Of a stretch of 54,704 nt of DNA, positions 2,972-30,281 are shown one piece after another. Location: positions 1-54,704 of IMG/VR virus record IMGVR_UViG_3300030105_002351, one strand, 5' to 3'. The stretch is from a virus. Lineage: Duplodnaviria; Caudoviricetes. Numbering within the stretch: the first letter of the stretch is position 1; each line of letters begins with the position of its first letter. The notes beneath the pieces are model-generated. The model ran no database searches, was not told where the DNA came from, and saw only the letters and a list, made by a program, of their open reading frames with translations. A program made the translations under genes and the position numbers.

Positions 2972-3309
2972 GTTGTACTCACTTTAACTGTTCCAGTTTC
3001 ACCTTTTATATTTAATCCCATGGTACTAGAACCAAATTCAAACATTCCACCCCCTACAGGATTAAAAGAATAATATGATGTAGAGCTTACTTCTCCTGCA
3101 TCTGGTCTAGCATTAAATAGAGTTTGAGGATCACTACTGTTTACTTCACCAAGCTTTAACTGTGGATGATCTATATCAAAGCAATTGTTGCAAACCCTCA
3201 TTCCATTTCTTTTACTATCTTCAATTTCATATCTTAAACGATTTAGTTTAAAGGTAAAACCACAGCGATCACATTGACCTAAAGCTTTAGTTGCTCTTGC
3301 ATAAGCCAT
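2968..3309 (-). CDS. Hypothetical protein with CxxC...CxxC zinc-binding motif
   Basis: CDRCG and VCNNCFD..HPQL. Confidence 0.65.
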   Translation of the reverse strand: MAYARATKALGQCDRCGFTFKLNRLRYEIEDSKRNGMRVCNNCFDIDHPQLKLGEVNSSDPQTLFNARPDAGEVSSTSYYSFNPVGGGMFEFGSSTMGLNIKGETGTVKVSTT

Positions 3310-4005
3310 TTAATAACCATAATTCCCTAAGTCTGGAACAAATCTAACAGATGCTCTTTCTCTATCTGCATCACTTACATCTTTCCATAACTCATTATAT
3401 CTTTGTCTAATCATTGGAACTCTTTGTTGAGCTTCAGGTGATTTGCAAGCTAAGTTATATGCTAAAGCATAAGTTAAGCATGGCAGATACCTTGCAGGTA
3501 CATCTGCATTATTACTTGCAATGTCTCCTGTATCTTCAATTTTTTGAATAAAATCATAAACTAAAGTATAAGGAGCGTCAGGAGTAGACCATAAAACTAT
3601 TTCAATACTACTTGTTCCTTTGTCTACATAAAACTGTGTTGGTTTAGCTTTATTTAGTTTATTAGATTGATGGTTATATTCTGTTTTAGATATTCTATTT
3701 AATCTTTGATCAAATTGATTTGCTGTATTTCCTGCATTAGTTCTTAAAAAAACATCAACAACATCTAGTGCAGAAGAATCTATAGTATAACTACTCGTTC
3801 CTTCAACAACGGATGCTGTTCCTTGTTCAACAGTCCATAGATTTAAACCTTTGTTTTGCCATTCTAAAAAGACTAAGTTTAAAGCTCTTTTAGCTCCTCT
3901 AAAACTATAGCCTGATCTTAGCTCTAAACCACAAAGATCATAAGCTTCTTCCATAATATCGCTTATATCTAAATTAAATGTATGCGTTCCACTTGTTGCC
4001 ATCAT
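3310..4005 (-). CDS. Putative head-tail connector protein
   Basis: TSGT..FNLD...IMEEAY, RALNL.F.EWQNKGLNLWT, PTQFY motifs; position between capsid and tail genes. Confidence 0.65.
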   Translation of the reverse strand: MMATSGTHTFNLDISDIMEEAYDLCGLELRSGYSFRGAKRALNLVFLEWQNKGLNLWTVEQGTASVVEGTSSYTIDSSALDVVDVFLRTNAGNTANQFDQRLNRISKTEYNHQSNKLNKAKPTQFYVDKGTSSIEIVLWSTPDAPYTLVYDFIQKIEDTGDIASNNADVPARYLPCLTYALAYNLACKSPEAQQRVPMIRQRYNELWKDVSDADRERASVRFVPDLGNYGY

Positions 4006-15149: not shown

Positions 15150-15240
15150 CGCTGATTCCAATTTATTATTTACTAGTAAAATATATTTCATGACCGCGTA
15201 ATTACTCACTTAATTATGGACTAATTGATCCTGATTTTTA

Positions 15241-15310
15241 ATGACTGCAATCAGCTATCAGGTATAATGTTTACTAAAATGTTTACATAGTGATTTTTAT
15301 CAAGTAAAGT
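15241..15310 (+). promoter_or_regulatory. Tandem sigma70-like promoters of the early operon
   Basis: ATGACT-N16-TATAAT (15241-15268) and TTTACA-N17-TAAAGT (15282-15310). Confidence 0.5.
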
Positions 15311-15334
15311 GGCTTTGCCACTTTCGGCAAACAA

Positions 15335-15350
15335 CGACCTCGGAGGTCAA
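15335..15350 (+). promoter_or_regulatory. SD-occluding hairpin motif, copy 1
   Basis: CGACCT-CGG-AGGTCAA, 4 nt before ATG 15355. Confidence 0.75.
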
Positions 15351-15354
15351 TATT

Positions 15355-15813
15355 ATGAGTAACTATTACGAAGTAACTGCAACACTGGATGACTATGACG
15401 AAGTGCTATTCGGTAGCTATATATTGGCTGAAGCGAAGTCTGAATTGTATGTGATTAAACCTAGTGCAAAGCATGATGGATATAAGAATATCCGCATAGA
15501 AAGTCGAGATTGTCCTGATGCACCTGAATATGTTCGGGTACCCTTGCAATCAGTAAAATTAGGTGGCGAGTTTAAGCTGAAGCCTGACGCTGAGAATGTA
15601 TACACTAAAGATTATTATAATCGATATGCTACTGATCAATATGGCGATTTACGACCTAGCTATACCTGTACAAGAATATGGGATTCTAACCACGAATTGT
15701 ATCTACTGCCTAAACGGAAAGTGTATGTTTTAACATCACAATGTAAGAACAATCTAATTGGCGGAACAGGAAATTATGAATATCAGAATGCCTTATTTAA
15801 TGTAAAAACATAA
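15355..15813 (+). CDS. Hypothetical early protein
   Basis: 152 aa with GGAGG RBS. Confidence 0.75.
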   Translation: MSNYYEVTATLDDYDEVLFGSYILAEAKSELYVIKPSAKHDGYKNIRIESRDCPDAPEYVRVPLQSVKLGGEFKLKPDAENVYTKDYYNRYATDQYGDLRPSYTCTRIWDSNHELYLLPKRKVYVLTSQCKNNLIGGTGNYEYQNALFNVKT

Positions 15814-15817
15814 ATTC

Positions 15818-15873
15818 TCACTCTGACGATCTGGATTAGTGATCTAGTGAAACCGACTTAGGTCGGTAAGTGA
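15818..15873 (+). ncRNA. Hammerhead ribozyme, type I (HH1)
   Basis: Stem I TCACT/AGTGA; core CTGACGA; stem II CTGGATT/GATCTAG; GAAA; stem III CCGAC/GTCGG; predicted cleavage after GUA at 15868. Confidence 0.9.
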
Positions 15874-15897
15874 AAACTAAAACAATGAGGTTATATT

Positions 15898-16143
15898 ATG
15901 AAATTAGCAACGAAGGAAAAAACTAGGATTGATACTTTTACAAGTGAATTATTCAGAAATTATACAGGCGTAAGTGATCAATGCAGTTTTGAGGAATTAA
16001 CTGGTTTAGCAATGGATTTCATTATTACGATACATAACGATTTTGAAGGTTTAAGTATAGATTATGATGCCATTGAATATGCTCATAATTATTTAGGGCA
16101 GGAAGGTTTAACGCAGGGTGACTTGCCAAACGACCTTAATTAA
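15898..16143 (+). CDS. Hypothetical early protein flanked by two hammerheads
   Basis: 81 aa with GAGG RBS. Confidence 0.75.
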   Translation: MKLATKEKTRIDTFTSELFRNYTGVSDQCSFEELTGLAMDFIITIHNDFEGLSIDYDAIEYAHNYLGQEGLTQGDLPNDLN

Positions 16144-16145
16144 AT

Positions 16146-16202
16146 TCACTCTGACGATCTGGGTTGGTGACCTAGTGAAACCCTCGCTAAGAGGGTAAGT
16201 GA
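16146..16202 (+). ncRNA. Hammerhead ribozyme, type I (HH2)
   Basis: Stem I TCACT/AGTGA; CTGACGA; stem II CTGGGTT/GACCTAG; GAAA; stem III CCCTC/GAGGG; predicted cleavage after GUA at 16197; compensatory changes relative to HH1. Confidence 0.92.
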
Positions 16203-16218
16203 TAACTTAAATATAAAA

Positions 16219-16234
16219 CGACCTTGGAGGTCAA
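16219..16234 (+). promoter_or_regulatory. SD-occluding hairpin motif, copy 2
   Basis: CGACCT-TGG-AGGTCAA, just before ATG 16237. Confidence 0.75.
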
Positions 16235-16236
16235 AA

Positions 16237-17295
16237 ATGAATACATCACCAAAAAAAGCAACGAAGATATTGGATAGCTGTTACAAGTCCAAAACTACCG
16301 CATTCTTAATTGGCGGTACAGGAATCGGCAAGTCTGAGATTGTCAAAACATTCGCAAAGAATAAGGCGAAGGAATTGGGCTTGAAGTTTACGCAGGACTG
16401 CATTGCACCGAATGATAGTCAATTCGGATATATAGATTTCAGGCTATCTCTGATGGAATCTATCGACCTTGGCGGACTGCCTATTGTGAACGATGACGGA
16501 ACCCAGAGCCGAGCATTTTTACCGAATCTGCCGACTTCAGGACAAGGTATTCTATTCTTGGACGAATTCGCTCAAGCGAATATGTCAGTAATGGCGATAG
16601 CAGGGCAATTGCTTCATGAAAAAAGAATCGGTGAGTACATTATGCCTGAAGGATGGACTGTCATTTGCGCAGGAAATCGCGCCTCCGATAGAGCAGGATC
16701 AATCGCTATTCCATCCCATGCCATCGGGCGAGTAGTAATGATTAATGTCGATGTGTCAACGCAGGACTGGCTCGACCATGCTCAATCAATTGGAGTGCAT
16801 GAGAACGTCCTAGGGTTCATAGGATTTCAGCAACAATATCTGAACAATTTTGATCCTAAAGTAAAAGACGCTCAAGCAAGCCCTCGATCATGGGTAAGAC
16901 TGAGCGATTTATTAAATACTGATCCTGTACCTGAGATCATTCAGGACTTATCCGCAGGATGTATCGGAGAGCAGGCGACCATTGAATTCATGAATTTTAT
17001 GTCATTGAAAAACGATGTACCTGATTTAAGGGAGATTGTCGCAGGTAAGGACGTAGCAATACCCGATCAGGGAGGCATAATGTATGCCACCATATGCGCT
17101 CTAATATCAGCTATCAAGCAAGCAGGCGATTCGACTGACGAATGGTTCGACAATGCGATGGCATATATCAATCGGTTTCCTTCGCCAGAATATGGAATCT
17201 TTTTTGTTAAGACGCTATCGAGTGTTGTACCTGAGATCGTCAACACGAAAACATATGGCGATTTCAAAGTAGCGAATCAGGACTTAGAATTTTAA
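16237..17295 (+). CDS. AAA+ ATPase (MoxR/dynein-related family)
   Basis: GGTGIGKS Walker A, DLGGLP, ILFLDEF Walker B, AGNR..D, SPRSW sensor 2. Confidence 0.88.
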   Translation: MNTSPKKATKILDSCYKSKTTAFLIGGTGIGKSEIVKTFAKNKAKELGLKFTQDCIAPNDSQFGYIDFRLSLMESIDLGGLPIVNDDGTQSRAFLPNLPTSGQGILFLDEFAQANMSVMAIAGQLLHEKRIGEYIMPEGWTVICAGNRASDRAGSIAIPSHAIGRVVMINVDVSTQDWLDHAQSIGVHENVLGFIGFQQQYLNNFDPKVKDAQASPRSWVRLSDLLNTDPVPEIIQDLSAGCIGEQATIEFMNFMSLKNDVPDLREIVAGKDVAIPDQGGIMYATICALISAIKQAGDSTDEWFDNAMAYINRFPSPEYGIFFVKTLSSVVPEIVNTKTYGDFKVANQDLEF

Positions 17296-17350
17296 TTGAT
17301 AAGCGAGGCGGATATATTTTATATACCAGTAAAATATATTTTTCCTCGCA

Positions 17351-17400
17351 GGGTTCTGCAAGTGATTACTTGCACTGATGAAGCTTCAAGCAGAAAACCC
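17351..17400 (+). ncRNA. Hammerhead ribozyme, type III (HH3)
   Basis: Stem III GGGTT/AACCC; predicted cleavage after UUC at 17356; stem I TGCAAGT/ACTTGCA; core CTGATGA; short stem II GCT/AGC; GAAA. Confidence 0.85.
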
Positions 17401-17414
17401 ATCAGAAATTATTA

Positions 17415-17430
17415 TGACCTAGGAGGTCAA
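17415..17430 (+). promoter_or_regulatory. SD-occluding hairpin motif, copy 3
   Basis: TGACCT-AGG-AGGTCAA, 3 nt before ATG 17434. Confidence 0.75.
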
Positions 17431-17433
17431 AAA

Positions 17434-18396
17434 ATGAATAGTAACTCAAACGCACTTTGCGAAAATGCAACATTGGTCAGGCTGACAATGAAGCATCCTA
17501 GCGGAATTAAATGCGACAAAAAAGCGCGATCTGAATGCGCTGAAGCAAACTCGATTTATAATGAAAAACTTGTCAGCGTATCTAAGCATATATTCGGCTT
17601 TGATATTAACAAGGAATTCAGGCGAATCGAGAATGGCATTCGTAATGATTTTTATTATGCGATGACTATGCCATGGGATGACGCGACAAACGATGGCGAT
17701 AAGCAAGCGTCTGGATGGAGGCTTTGCCCGAATAAGAATCTGGATAAACTTCAAATTGAAATCAACATGGCAGAAATTGCATTCAATAAAGAACGCGACC
17801 ATGCAGTCAAAGAATTCGATGCGAGGATTGCTAGTGCAAATGTTGAATTGGGTAGCTTGTTTAATATCAGCGACTACCCAACAAGAGATGAATTTGAAGC
17901 GAAATTCATTTTTGATTTTCAATTGCAAATGGTTCCATCTTATAACCACGATATAAGAATCAATTGTTCTGATGACTTTAAAAAGAAAATCGAGGATCAG
18001 GCGATAGCAAAACAAAATGCGAATATCAAAAATTCTTATAAGCAAGTAGTAGAAGGATTGATTGATAGCGTGTCGCATATTGCTGATAAAGTCGGAGAGT
18101 ATGATCCGAAAAATAAGCAAGGCGGATTTTTTAATAAATCAAGCTTCGATAATTTGAGAAAAACTATCTCAAATATTCCTGCAATCAATTCCGATATTCT
18201 TGGCGATGATCCTGCAATCACGAAGGCGCATCAATCACTTGTCAAAGTAATGTCGGGCATTACTAATGTCGAAGGATTACGCGAGGACAATCCAACGTCT
18301 ACCCAAAACCGCGAAGATTTATCCAAGGATTTAAAAGAATCTATCAGCGATCTAAAAGGCGGATTCATGGAAAATCTATATGGGGGCAAAAAATGA
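17434..18396 (+). CDS. Helical protein, possibly DUF3150-like
   Basis: Start reassigned to ATG 17434 after GGAGG; T.PW.D....G.RL.PN and LG.LFN..DYP motifs; between the AAA and VWA genes. Confidence 0.7.
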   Translation: MNSNSNALCENATLVRLTMKHPSGIKCDKKARSECAEANSIYNEKLVSVSKHIFGFDINKEFRRIENGIRNDFYYAMTMPWDDATNDGDKQASGWRLCPNKNLDKLQIEINMAEIAFNKERDHAVKEFDARIASANVELGSLFNISDYPTRDEFEAKFIFDFQLQMVPSYNHDIRINCSDDFKKKIEDQAIAKQNANIKNSYKQVVEGLIDSVSHIADKVGEYDPKNKQGGFFNKSSFDNLRKTISNIPAINSDILGDDPAITKAHQSLVKVMSGITNVEGLREDNPTSTQNREDLSKDLKESISDLKGGFMENLYGGKK

Positions 18397-19649
18397 ATAG
18401 CTTAGACAAATTGACGAAGGCGCGTTCAAAGCTGATGCGTAATAACTTAGGCATAGCGACCATGCTATTGACCTTGGATTTAATCGAATGCGATGCAAGC
18501 AAAACTGAAACGATGGCGACTGACGGCAGGCAGATATTTTTTCATCCTGATTTTGTCGAAGGTCATAGCATCCCAGAGTTGCAAGCCGTATTGATCCATG
18601 AAGCGATGCACGTCAGATTCAGCCATCCATTACGCAAAGGCAATCGGCATCATATACTCTGGAATTATGCGACTGATTACGTTATCAATAATCATTTGAG
18701 ATATGACCTAGGGATGCAATTGCCAGAAGGCGGATTATGGGATCGAAAATACATGAATATGACTGCTGAGAAGGTTTATCAGCAATTGGCTAACAGTCCT
18801 GACGACCTGAAGAAAACGGCAGAAAATGTGTCGAATGAATCAAGCGATGAATCAGGCGATACGTCAGACGATACGTCATGGGATGATTTACCTATGCCAT
18901 CTGGCGAAGTATTGGAACCTGTTGACGATGTCGGTAAGCCATTAGACGCGACTCAATTAGAGGAATTGCAAACTGCAATCAATCGAGCCGTATCTATGTC
19001 AGATAAGCTTGAAACATTCGGATCGAATCAGCAGTCAGGTCGAGGCGATGTGAAAACTGATTCTGATGAAATTGCGCCATGGCATGAGATTCTGCAAGAG
19101 CATATGGAATCGATCAGATCAAACGATGTTAAGAATTTCAAGCGATACAATAAGCAACACGCGCATCGCGGAATACATATGCCGACTAGAGATTTTGTAC
19201 CTGAAGGCGGAACCCTTGCTGTAGCAATTGACTCTAGTTGCTCGGTGAGTCAAGGCGAATTGGATATATATGCTAGCAATATTCAGAGCATTGCTGAATC
19301 GCTGAATCTATCAAAAATCATGATTTGTTATTGCGACACGATTGTTCATAAAAACAATCAGGGCGAATGGTGGGATGAACACGAGTTGATGGAAGGCGAT
19401 GACCTGAAGCTTGTCATAAGAGGCGGAGGCGGAACCGAATTTGATCCGCCATTCAATCTGTTAAATGACTATACCGAAAATCTTAGCGAGATAATGGCAT
19501 TTGTTTATTTTACTGATGGATATGCAAACGTCAGCCCATCAGTGGAACCCGACTTACCTGTGATATGGTGCTTGACTGCTAAATCGAGTTATAGCGATGG
19601 ACTGCCGTTCGGTGAGAAGGTTTATATCGATACAAGCAAGTTGATTTAA
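18393..19649 (+). CDS. Zincin metallopeptidase plus VWA-like domain protein (DUF2201-type)
   Basis: TMATDG, HEAMH (HExxH), WN.A.D..IN; MIDAS-like DSSCS, GGGGT.F, YFTDG. Confidence 0.85.
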   Translation: MNSLDKLTKARSKLMRNNLGIATMLLTLDLIECDASKTETMATDGRQIFFHPDFVEGHSIPELQAVLIHEAMHVRFSHPLRKGNRHHILWNYATDYVINNHLRYDLGMQLPEGGLWDRKYMNMTAEKVYQQLANSPDDLKKTAENVSNESSDESGDTSDDTSWDDLPMPSGEVLEPVDDVGKPLDATQLEELQTAINRAVSMSDKLETFGSNQQSGRGDVKTDSDEIAPWHEILQEHMESIRSNDVKNFKRYNKQHAHRGIHMPTRDFVPEGGTLAVAIDSSCSVSQGELDIYASNIQSIAESLNLSKIMICYCDTIVHKNNQGEWWDEHELMEGDDLKLVIRGGGGTEFDPPFNLLNDYTENLSEIMAFVYFTDGYANVSPSVEPDLPVIWCLTAKSSYSDGLPFGEKVYIDTSKLI

Positions 19650-19655
19650 AAGGGT

Positions 19656-19706
19656 GATTCTAGGGTATGCCATGGCATTACTTGCATGGCTAAACCCTCC
19701 AGAATC
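19656..19706 (+). other. Intergenic multi-segment hairpin
   Basis: GATTCT/AGAATC, AGGGT/ACCCT and GCCATG/CATGGC nested pairings. Confidence 0.6.
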
Positions 19707-20236: not shown

Positions 20237-20264
20237 AGAGGGTGCTTCGGCACTCTTTTTTTTT
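20237..20264 (+). terminator. Rho-independent terminator
   Basis: GGGTGC-TTCG-GCACTC followed by a T run. Confidence 0.88.
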
Positions 20265-20380
20265 GGAAAAATTTAATTGAAACTAAGATCAGAAATATAA
20301 TTTACTGGTAAATAAAAAATATTTTTTTTAGTTTCACATGAAACTTTTCTGTAGGTCTTCTTCATGATTTTTAATTAAGA

Positions 20381-21294: not shown

Positions 21295-21320
21295 AAGAGT
21301 GCTTCGGCACTCTTTTTTTT
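21295..21320 (+). terminator. Rho-independent terminator
   Basis: AAGAGTGC-TTCG-GCACTCTT plus T run; near-identical to the terminator at 20237. Confidence 0.88.
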
Positions 21321-21654
21321 GGGTGGGATTTATTTTTGGATGCACAGCCAAATTATCAATTACCAGTAAATAATATATTTTGATTGAGCTGCAACAAAGA
21401 TTTATGTTGTTTCAATAAAATATTTTAGATATAAAAATTTTTCCCACCAATATTTCTGATGACATAAATTTGCATCTGTTTGAGGTAATAACTAGAAATA
21501 CATCAAAAAACGAAGCCATAGAATTCGATTTAAGCGACTTTATGACCTATGCCGTTGTGATTGTATACCCAAAAAATACCCACTTTTAATGATCAATGGC
21601 AACTAGGAAATTTAAAAAACTGGTAAATAAAAAATATTTTTAATATACCAGCAA

Positions 21655-28541: not shown

Positions 28542-28686
28542 TATCACTGAACCTTTTTTAAAAAAATTGCTTAATTTTTCTGAAGACAAAAGAAAAAAAA
28601 TAGCTTTGATTTTAATTACATCCTGTATAACAAGCTTATCTGATCAAGAAATTAAGCAAGTGGTAAAAAGCATACATGAAAGGTAA
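28531..28686 (+). CDS. 51-aa hypothetical protein
   Basis: Open frame overlapping both neighbours and filling the gap. Confidence 0.45.
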   Translation: MERNITEPFLKKLLNFSEDKRKKIALILITSCITSLSDQEIKQVVKSIHER

Positions 28687-30234: not shown

Positions 30235-30281
30235 AAAATATTATTTACCAGTATATAAAATAATACATACAGAGGTGTAGC

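Follow-up and report, generated by a model that had tools for sequence, protein, structure and literature searches.

[quoted passage not shown] 2011 (PMC3088659), who proposed that such ribozymes process long phage transcripts into operon- or gene-length mRNAs. Three clustered prophage hammerhead arrays were shown to cleave in that work, with cleavage seen both in vitro and in vivo. The same source describes natural U10.1-U11.1 hammerheads, finds both this mismatch and a 2-bp stem II, a frequent length there, among active natural ribozymes, and reports that U.U gives more activity than any other 10.1/11.1 mismatch. More generally, PMC4604425 and PMC5737381 summarise from Weinberg et al. 2015 that self-cleaving ribozymes cluster together and lie close to particular phage genes. 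Such an association with certain phage genes is described there for hammerhead and twister ribozymes, and it was used to find twister-sister, pistol, and hatchet. The purpose of phage hammerheads is, according to a 2019 review (PMC6765202), still to be concretely defined.

The locus studied here lies in a 54,704-base viral contig (93% complete by CheckV estimate), the whole of which was analyzed and is referred to below as the window. Like the prophage clusters of Perreault et al. 2011, it contains three + strand hammerheads (HH1, HH2, and HH3) in consecutive spacers, bracketing genes, and the same is true of relatives; as in that work, stem II is short and position 10.1/11.1 holds a mismatch, which is U.U in HH1, HH2, and many relatives. 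This clustering of ribozymes, among themselves and close to particular phage genes, is shared with the loci where twister-sister, pistol, and hatchet were discovered. In contrast to the clusters of Perreault et al. 2011, where the flanked genes are said to be "not constant", the site analyzed here is fixed, in the order ATPase, hairpin, type III hammerhead, and p320, throughout a large group of uncultured marine phages. The window copy of the type III hammerhead also differs from the U.U ribozymes described there in having A.A, and it is always preceded by a conserved long hairpin with a palindromic tip. Hammerhead sequences of this phage group may already be contained in the alignments of Perreault et al. 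2011. Literature searches for a link between hammerheads and ATPase or von Willebrand genes in phages returned nothing specific.

What is distinctive here is the combination of the fixed MoxR-ATPase/VWA-like operon site, the obligatory hairpin with its repeated tip, the A.A opposition, and invisibility to Rfam. One MoxR-like ATPase gene is bracketed by type I and type III hammerheads, plus a hairpin, in dozens of divergent genomes, and the phage group offers an unusually fixed arrangement for testing the purpose of hammerheads in phages. The arrangement gives clear predictions for mRNA ends, mRNA stability, and how strongly the ATPase is expressed relative to its VWA-like partner.

Genomic Context of the Locus

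Genes for the small and large terminase subunits and the portal protein occupy the - strand of the window up to position 15209, and an early-looking + strand gene block begins at 15355. Replication and recombination genes come after the ATPase, p320, and DUF2201 genes. The features of the block that are relevant here are as follows:

15818-15873, + strand: type I hammerhead HH1 (descriptor scan and sequence reading; predicted cut after A15868)
16146-16202, + strand: type I hammerhead HH2, immediately before the ATPase gene (descriptor scan; predicted cut after A16197)
16237-17295, + strand: gene for a MoxR-like AAA ATPase of 352 aa (phrog_1297 ATPase, E 3.4e-72; weak Pfam AAA_5 match)
17303-17349, + strand: long hairpin directly 5' of HH3 (fold; conserved in relatives)
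17351-17400, + strand: type III hammerhead HH3 (sequence reading, descriptor scan, covariance models, synteny, and covariation)
17434-18396, + strand: p320 gene, 320 aa, no known family (ATG at 17434, AGGAGG at 17421-26)
18393-19649, + strand: gene for a protein with DUF2201_N (putative metallopeptidase) and DUF2201 (VWA-like) domains (Pfam E 2.2e-27 and 3.2e-14)

The DUF2201_N/DUF2201 protein is likely the partner of the ATPase. The spacer from the ATPase stop codon to the p320 ATG at 17434 is about 138-139 nt long and contains the hairpin and HH3. A first-pass annotation of the window had placed HH3 between the AAA ATPase and its partner genes, and this location holds, with p320 coming first and the DUF2201 VWA-like protein second.

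A blastn search with positions 15300-19700 gave no match among cultured phages. When the ATPase was compared with cultured phages by tblastn, the best match was below 37% identity, and no close cultured phage was found. The two cultured phages whose records were inspected, Vibrio phage 1.026.O and Cyanophage S-TIM54, have no spacer 3' of the ATPase gene, and hence no slot for a ribozyme.

Structure of HH3

Stem III of HH3 is formed by GGGUU and AACCC (G17351-U17355 with A17396-C17400, 5 bp) and includes the A15.1-U16.1 pair. The H17 nucleotide is C17356, part of a UUC triplet in keeping with the non-G NUH requirement, with A17396 paired to U17355, and the predicted cut falls between C17356 and U17357. 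Stem I consists of seven perfect base pairs (U17357-U17363 with A17368-A17374) closed by a GAUU loop. It is followed by the CUGAUGA core at 17375-17381, by a 3-bp stem II (GCU/AGC, 17383-85 with 17389-91) closed by a UCA loop, and by GAA (G12 A13 A14) at 17393-95. All 11 invariant core bases are intact, and helices I and II are closed by loops and helix III is open, as type III requires. At 10.1/11.1, A17382 faces A17392, and the usual Watson-Crick pair (mostly G-C) is absent. The first-pass annotation had described a type III hammerhead with a 7-bp stem I, a CUGAUGA core, a 3-bp stem II flanked by A-A, and a UUC site cut after C17356; this description proved accurate to the base, and the position of the cut agrees with our type III reading of the sequence.

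Two or three complementary bases can be drawn by eye between the GAUU and UCA loops. Most relatives have (U)GUGU and GAAA loops, unlike those of HH3, so a tertiary contact between loops I and II is not obviously kept.

Compared with shuffled sequences, the whole spacer (~139 nt) had a folding z of -4.99, and HH3 alone had a marginal z of -1.94. The minimum-energy fold of the whole spacer contains a competing helix, in which CUGAUG (17375-80) pairs with CAUCAG (17400-05); nearest-neighbor energies of the two folds are -14.7 kcal/mol with the competing helix and -13.6 kcal/mol with the hammerhead. The competing helix is not general among relatives. In one haplotype of the window's own lineage (see below) it is kept via a G.U pair, there being an A to G change at 17401. 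CAUCAG is the last of these segments to be made, which allows the ribozyme to fold before it.

Chance Expectation and Model Searches

Both strands of the window were scanned with a descriptor that specified CUGANGA, a stem II of 3 bp or more (one mismatch being allowed at its closing position), GAAA, stem III, UH, and a stem I of at least 4 bp, in all three circular permutations. Three sites were found in the 54.7-kb window, all of them on the + strand and each in one of three successive spacers of a single gene block. Across 300 first-order Markov random windows, the descriptor matched 18 times in total (0.06 per window), and none of these 18 matches was a type III hammerhead with a stem I of at least 7 bp and a stem III of at least 5 bp.

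HH3 has the topology and core bases of the Rfam Hammerhead_3 family (RF00008), and a local search with this model aligned 17351-17400 with model positions 3-52 of 54. Its score, however, was 13.2 bits (E 4.3) versus a gathering score of 48.5 bits, and 0 of 12 relatives tested reached gathering. Rfam as a whole returned nothing at the gathering score in the window or in the 12 relatives. When matches were taken by E-value, no hammerhead was listed for the whole window, and HH1 and HH2 were absent at E up to 10 in a search of 15780-16250. HH3 is below the Rfam threshold and is not a family member by the Rfam criterion, so the case for it rests on comparative evidence. The Rfam hammerhead models miss a whole, abundant lineage of marine phages.

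A covariance model, R1, was built from 33 distinct type III sequences, the window's own among them, and scored HH3, as part of its training set, at 39.9 bits. Because R1 had been trained on the window sequence, a second model, R2, was built from 31 distant-relative sequences, with the window lineage excluded. R2 missed HH3 with default filters; with filters off, 17348-17403 was the top match of the window (22.9 bits, E about 0.0036). The result of this test is positive but modest, and synteny is the stronger argument. A covariance-model search had been proposed in the first-pass annotation, and both R1 and R2 (filters off) detect HH3, the Rfam Hammerhead_3 model staying below gathering.

With R2, a second site of the window, 28552-28602 (+), scored nearly the same as HH3 (22.6 bits). 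It lies in a low-complexity A/U-rich spacer and has UUUUUU/AAAAAA and AAAAAU/AUUUUU helices, CUGAAGA, and GAAA, and is without a stem II. This site is probably low-complexity noise, and possibly a decayed hammerhead.

Conservation in Relatives

The ATPase was aligned with 32 homologues, and the alignment was used to fetch 80 viral-contig loci out of 503 reported. Two of these loci are near-identical to the window, and the other 78 encode ATPases that are 48-56% identical to that of the window. Hammerheads were counted in the 75 loci that extend 150 nt or more beyond the ATPase. In 50 of them, a strict scanner detected a type III hammerhead at 57-137 nt downstream of the ATPase match, and R1 detected one in 69, at -30 to +300 nt of the ATPase end and always at E <=3.8e-5. 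The 69 positives include the two loci near-identical to the window, and the 31 relative sequences that served as training span more than 31 loci, since some sequences are shared; the loci gained by R1 over the strict scan are outside the training set, and several of them have long insertions. The six misses were L074, L075, L076, L078, L079, and L080. In L074, the Rfam Hammerhead_3 model matched at 3270-3359, overlapping the ATPase 3' end, with 33.8 bits (E 9e-4). The question raised in the first-pass annotation, whether homologous operons carry a ribozyme downstream of the ATPase, is therefore answered by its presence in 69/75 loci.

Homologues of p320 follow the ATPase in 75 of the 80 loci and the DUF2201 gene is seen in 66, the remainder being cut short. 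The conserved order is thus ATPase, hairpin, hammerhead, p320, and DUF2201.

Covariation was scored in a model-fitted alignment of all 130 R1 matches (82 distinct rows), an alignment that leans toward the model structure. Paired combinations filled 90% of cells vs 60.5% in shuffles, both-sided changes occurred in 16 of 18 pairs, and all three helices covaried; the covariation score was 0.683, vs at most 0.082 when the 3' partners were slid by 1-3 columns. Stems at the ATPase site are wholly different between subgroups, and the core is invariant. One subgroup has UGCUGUC...CAGCA with GAUC/GAUC, another has UAUCUGAU...AUCAGAUA with UGC/GCA, and the window has GGGUU...AACCC with GCU/AGC. The cleavage triplets in relatives are GUC, AUA, GUA, GUU, and AUC. 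At the level of sequence, these comparisons confirm 17351-17400 as a real, conserved type III hammerhead, an element of an already known kind, for which we infer cleavage.

Two further observations were made in the relatives. ATPase-downstream hammerheads 84-98 nt long occur in L053, L056, L060, L033, L072, L073, L034, L035, L041, L044, L010, and L081, and are aligned by the model with insertions of ~30-40 nt. In L053, direct reading of the insert revealed that A9 and stem II are separated by one or two additional hairpins; inserts at this place would be an unusual architecture or a nested element. In L018, L035, L037-L039, L047, L049, L058, L059, L070, and L081, tblastn matches to DUF2201 start at query residue 166, ~650 nt past the end of the p320 gene, which points to either an insertion or a divergent N-terminal part in these relatives.

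Start Codon of p320

The list of open reading frames begins p320 at TTG 17296. Homologues of p320 align from residue 1-6 of the protein that starts at ATG 17434. Upstream of this ATG, the frame stays open for a median of 8 codons in 44 distinct relatives and for 15 codons in L004, a 99%-identical copy. Nearly all relatives have a GGAGG ribosome site before the ATG. The start at TTG 17296 is an artefact and reflects a frame that happens to be open; with the homologues starting at ATG 17434 and the upstream frame closed in relatives, the extension to 17296 is spurious, as the first-pass annotation had held.

The same data bear on the view that HH3 resembles a hammerhead by chance and lies in an ordinary spacer, or that it belongs to an N-terminal p320 extension translated from TTG 17296. 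Such a view would account for the 13.2-bit Rfam score and for the frame that is open from 17296 in the window. It is, however, hard to reconcile with an element that occupies the same position, with covariation, in 69/75 loci when 0.06 matches per window are expected by chance, or with a frame that is closed upstream of a conserved GGAGG and ATG both in relatives and in the 99%-identical copy, and we consider it extremely improbable.

The p320 start also belongs to a translation start region, CGACCTNGGAGGTCAA..ATG, common to three genes of the block (15337-15357, 16219-16239, and 17417-17436). In each of them, the Shine-Dalgarno sequence straddles the loop and the 3' arm of a small GACCU/AGGUC hairpin, and a similar form, GAATGGAGGTTC, is found at the start region of relatives.

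The Hairpin Preceding HH3

The outer stem of the hairpin at 17303-17349 is formed by GCGAGG (17303-08) and CCTCGC (17344-49), the inner stem is AT-rich, and the tip is the palindrome-like TATACCAGTAAA at 17322-17333. The first-pass annotation had noted a GCGAGG/CCTCGC hairpin with an AT-rich inner stem before the ribozyme; it is present by fold, is identical in all seven near-identical copies aligned with the window (see below), and has counterparts in relatives. A long hairpin was found between the ATPase stop codon and the hammerhead in every relative. Among 41 distinct 70-nt segments upstream of the hammerhead, 40 have a helix around an (A/G)CYRGT center, and in the exception the hairpin is further upstream. 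Hairpins of relatives have a median of 21 bp, 31 distinct outer 5' arms, and a mean z of -5.4. Their outer arms vary in sequence and the outer stem covaries, and the tip sequence is conserved as a TATTATTTACYRGTAAAT-like motif (a TTTACYRGTAAA-like palindrome). RNAalifold gave no consensus for the MAFFT-aligned hairpin spacers, in which the 3' arms are out of register; for this reason, the hairpin was assessed by per-sequence folds. The conservation of a hairpin immediately before the ribozyme is in keeping with the suggestion of the first-pass annotation that it could shield the upstream cleavage product at its 3' end.

Variation at 10.1/11.1 and in the Window's Own Lineage

Seven near-identical copies of the locus were found by a metagenome scan; six, plus L004, were aligned to the window, and L090, which ends inside the ATPase gene, was left out. 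The near-identical copies represent three haplotypes. Within the ribozyme, they differ in the loops by an inserted U and a U to G change (loop I) and a C to A change (loop II), and elsewhere by a single stem I pair (G-C to G.U) and by H17, where C is replaced by U in one haplotype. The core (CUGAUGA in all seven copies aligned) and the A.A are unchanged, and no pair is broken. In this small sample, the pattern fits purifying selection on a working hammerhead.

Position 10.1/11.1 was compared in the model alignment of 48 distinct ATPase-site hammerheads. It is U.U in 20, G-C in 8, and G.U in 1; 5 have a U facing C, which probably reflects a U left unpaired after A9, and 12 are unaligned at this position owing to long inserts. 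The two rows of the window lineage appear as "AG", which is a one-base misalignment, and are A.A by direct reading. A.A was seen only in the window lineage among the 48. Natural examples in Perreault et al. 2011 place a short stem II with a mismatch inside the known natural variation. Since U.U outperforms every other mismatch in that work, A.A is probably weaker. The A.A opposition, for which the literature consulted gives no example, is unusual and may lower the rate of cleavage. HH3 is a natural A10.1.A11.1 variant, and its activity would inform the rules for this position.

A stronger form of this argument is that HH3 is a weakened or dead hammerhead, its inherited fold being kept as a structured leader of p320 and its useful cleavage abolished by the A.A and the loops. 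The restriction of A.A to the window lineage, the top rank that Perreault et al. 2011 give to U.U among mismatches at this pair, loops unlike those of relatives, and a competing helix of similar energy are all in line with this explanation. We nevertheless find it unlikely: the 11 invariant core bases, the A15.1-U16.1 pair, and an allowed H17 are intact, and the three haplotypes vary only where a working hammerhead tolerates change (the C to U substitution at H17 yields another non-G base), while a relic would be expected to gain changes in the core.

HH1, HH2, and the Ancestry of the Arrangement

HH1 is a paralogue of HH2, with which it shares the stem I sequence UCACU/AGUGA, and both have U.U at 10.1/11.1. 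At least 51 of 80 relatives, vs 0 of 80 shuffled loci, have a type I hammerhead in the slot that HH2 occupies before the ATPase gene, and in further loci, variants with an unpaired U after A9 could be recognized in the upstream slot by eye. The first-pass annotation had taken the unrelated stems of HH3 as a sign of independent recruitment. This part of it found no support in that form: the layout with type I upstream and type III downstream is shared with relatives whose ATPase is ~50% identical, and must therefore go back to a common ancestor of the phage group instead of having been recruited in this phage.

In at least five loci (L057, L062, L067, L068, and L082), the upstream slot holds another conserved element, …AATCCTGAGCAAGATTTTAAACTGCTCAACTCCCCTTAATCA…TGATTAATGGGAATTAACCC…, about 60-140 nt upstream of the ATPase start. 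It had no Rfam match at E up to 1, and could be another processing element. More type III hammerheads are located 1-3 kb upstream of the ATPase (R1 E from 1e-13 to 1e-5) in L011-L016, L019, L034-L036, L044, L048, L062, L064, L068, and others, and with these extra matches, some relatives have at least four hammerheads in about 4 kb.

Predicted Processing of the Transcript

It is quite probable that HH3 self-cleaves a long phage mRNA in the ATPase/p320 spacer and separates the ATPase message from the p320/DUF2201 messages. The + strand early block would be transcribed as a long RNA, probably from a sigma-70-like promoter at 15241-15268. HH3 would fold upon synthesis and, by the known chemistry of the family, cut between C17356 and U17357. 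The upstream product would then end with the hairpin at 17303-17349 and a 7-nt tail (A17350 to C17356) carrying a 2',3'-cyclic phosphate, and the downstream product would start with a 5'-OH and carry the ribozyme body as the leader of p320.

The order of the two topologies would have a further consequence. The body of a type I hammerhead such as HH2 should remain on the 5' product, and that of a type III hammerhead such as HH3 on the 3' product. With HH2 before and HH3 after the ATPase gene, the topology predicts an ATPase RNA without either ribozyme body. This single-gene RNA would span 16198-17356 (1159 nt), with a 5'-OH end that retains 5 nt of stem I and a 3' end capped by the hairpin plus 7 nt. 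Its likely purpose would be to make the ATPase mRNA independent of p320/DUF2201 in stability and translation while transcription continues, which is the processing role put forward by Perreault et al. 2011 for clustered phage hammerheads.

Two systems offer functional analogies only. In engineered ribozyme insulators such as RiboJ, cleavage of the leader gives a defined 5' end. In T7 early mRNA, which is processed at RNase III hairpins, a terminal hairpin stabilizes the upstream product.

The Tip Motif in the Window

The tip of the hairpin recurs elsewhere. The motif (consensus about ATTATTTACYRGTAAATAATAT) was found at the following positions:

15169, 15997, 17322, 20301, 22711, 30244, and 47734: TWWACYRGTWWA (motif search of the window)
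21359: related pattern WWTACYRGTAWW (motif search of the window)

Seven copies of TWWACYRGTWWA compare with 0.67 expected, and 0 of 100 shuffles reached seven. Several copies are in spacers, that at 30244 among them. The copy at 20301 is just after a terminator-like site at 20237-20258, and the one at 21359 is just after another at 21295-21314. The copy at 15169 is in the divergent region ahead of the early block, where 15241-15268 is the best sigma-70-like site. In 51 of 82 loci (a count that includes L001 and L002, duplicates of L003 and L004), the motif occurs once per 4-6 kb locus, at the ATPase-downstream hairpin. Recurrence of the tip motif at other spacers, twice after terminators, means that the hairpin may be more than a 3'-end cap. 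The tip may itself be a recognition sequence, acting either in DNA as a promoter or operator or in RNA as a site for a protein or an RNase.

If the DNA is what is recognized, the hairpin would be mainly a regulatory site that serves p320/DUF2201 as promoter or operator, rather than an RNA cap, and the hammerhead would trim the leader, so that p320 mRNA gets the same 5' end whether it comes from a local start or from ATPase read-through. The excess of TWWACYRGTWWA over expectation, its copies after terminators and before the early block (15169), and a tip that is conserved across relatives with variable outer arms would all be explained in this way. No sigma-70 -35/-10 pair could, however, be fitted to the palindromic motif by eye, and the promoter scan listed none there; the outer stem, which a promoter would not need, covaries; and most relatives have the motif only once per locus, downstream of the ATPase. 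A mainly DNA-level site is, in our view, conceivable but doubtful, and it is compatible with the preferred reading of HH3 as a self-cleaving ribozyme that separates the two messages.

An N4-like hairpin promoter was considered and rejected: the 2562-aa protein of the phage is an internal virion/polyvalent protein (LPD38; weak PDB match to 9sfn_G), not an RNA polymerase.

A broader version of the self-cleavage reading can be put forward tentatively. Hairpin and type III hammerhead may form a composite "punctuation" module, in which the order of type I and type III ribozymes would excise a body-free ATPase mRNA with a terminator-like 3' hairpin without termination, and the tip, recurring at the boundaries of transcription units, would be the site of a phage or host factor that couples control of transcription to processing.

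The terminator-like sites at 20237-20258 and 21295-21314 are themselves nearly identical + strand hairpins of the intrinsic-terminator type (GAGTGCTTCGGCACTC followed by a T run), and both close small transcription units of the + strand block.
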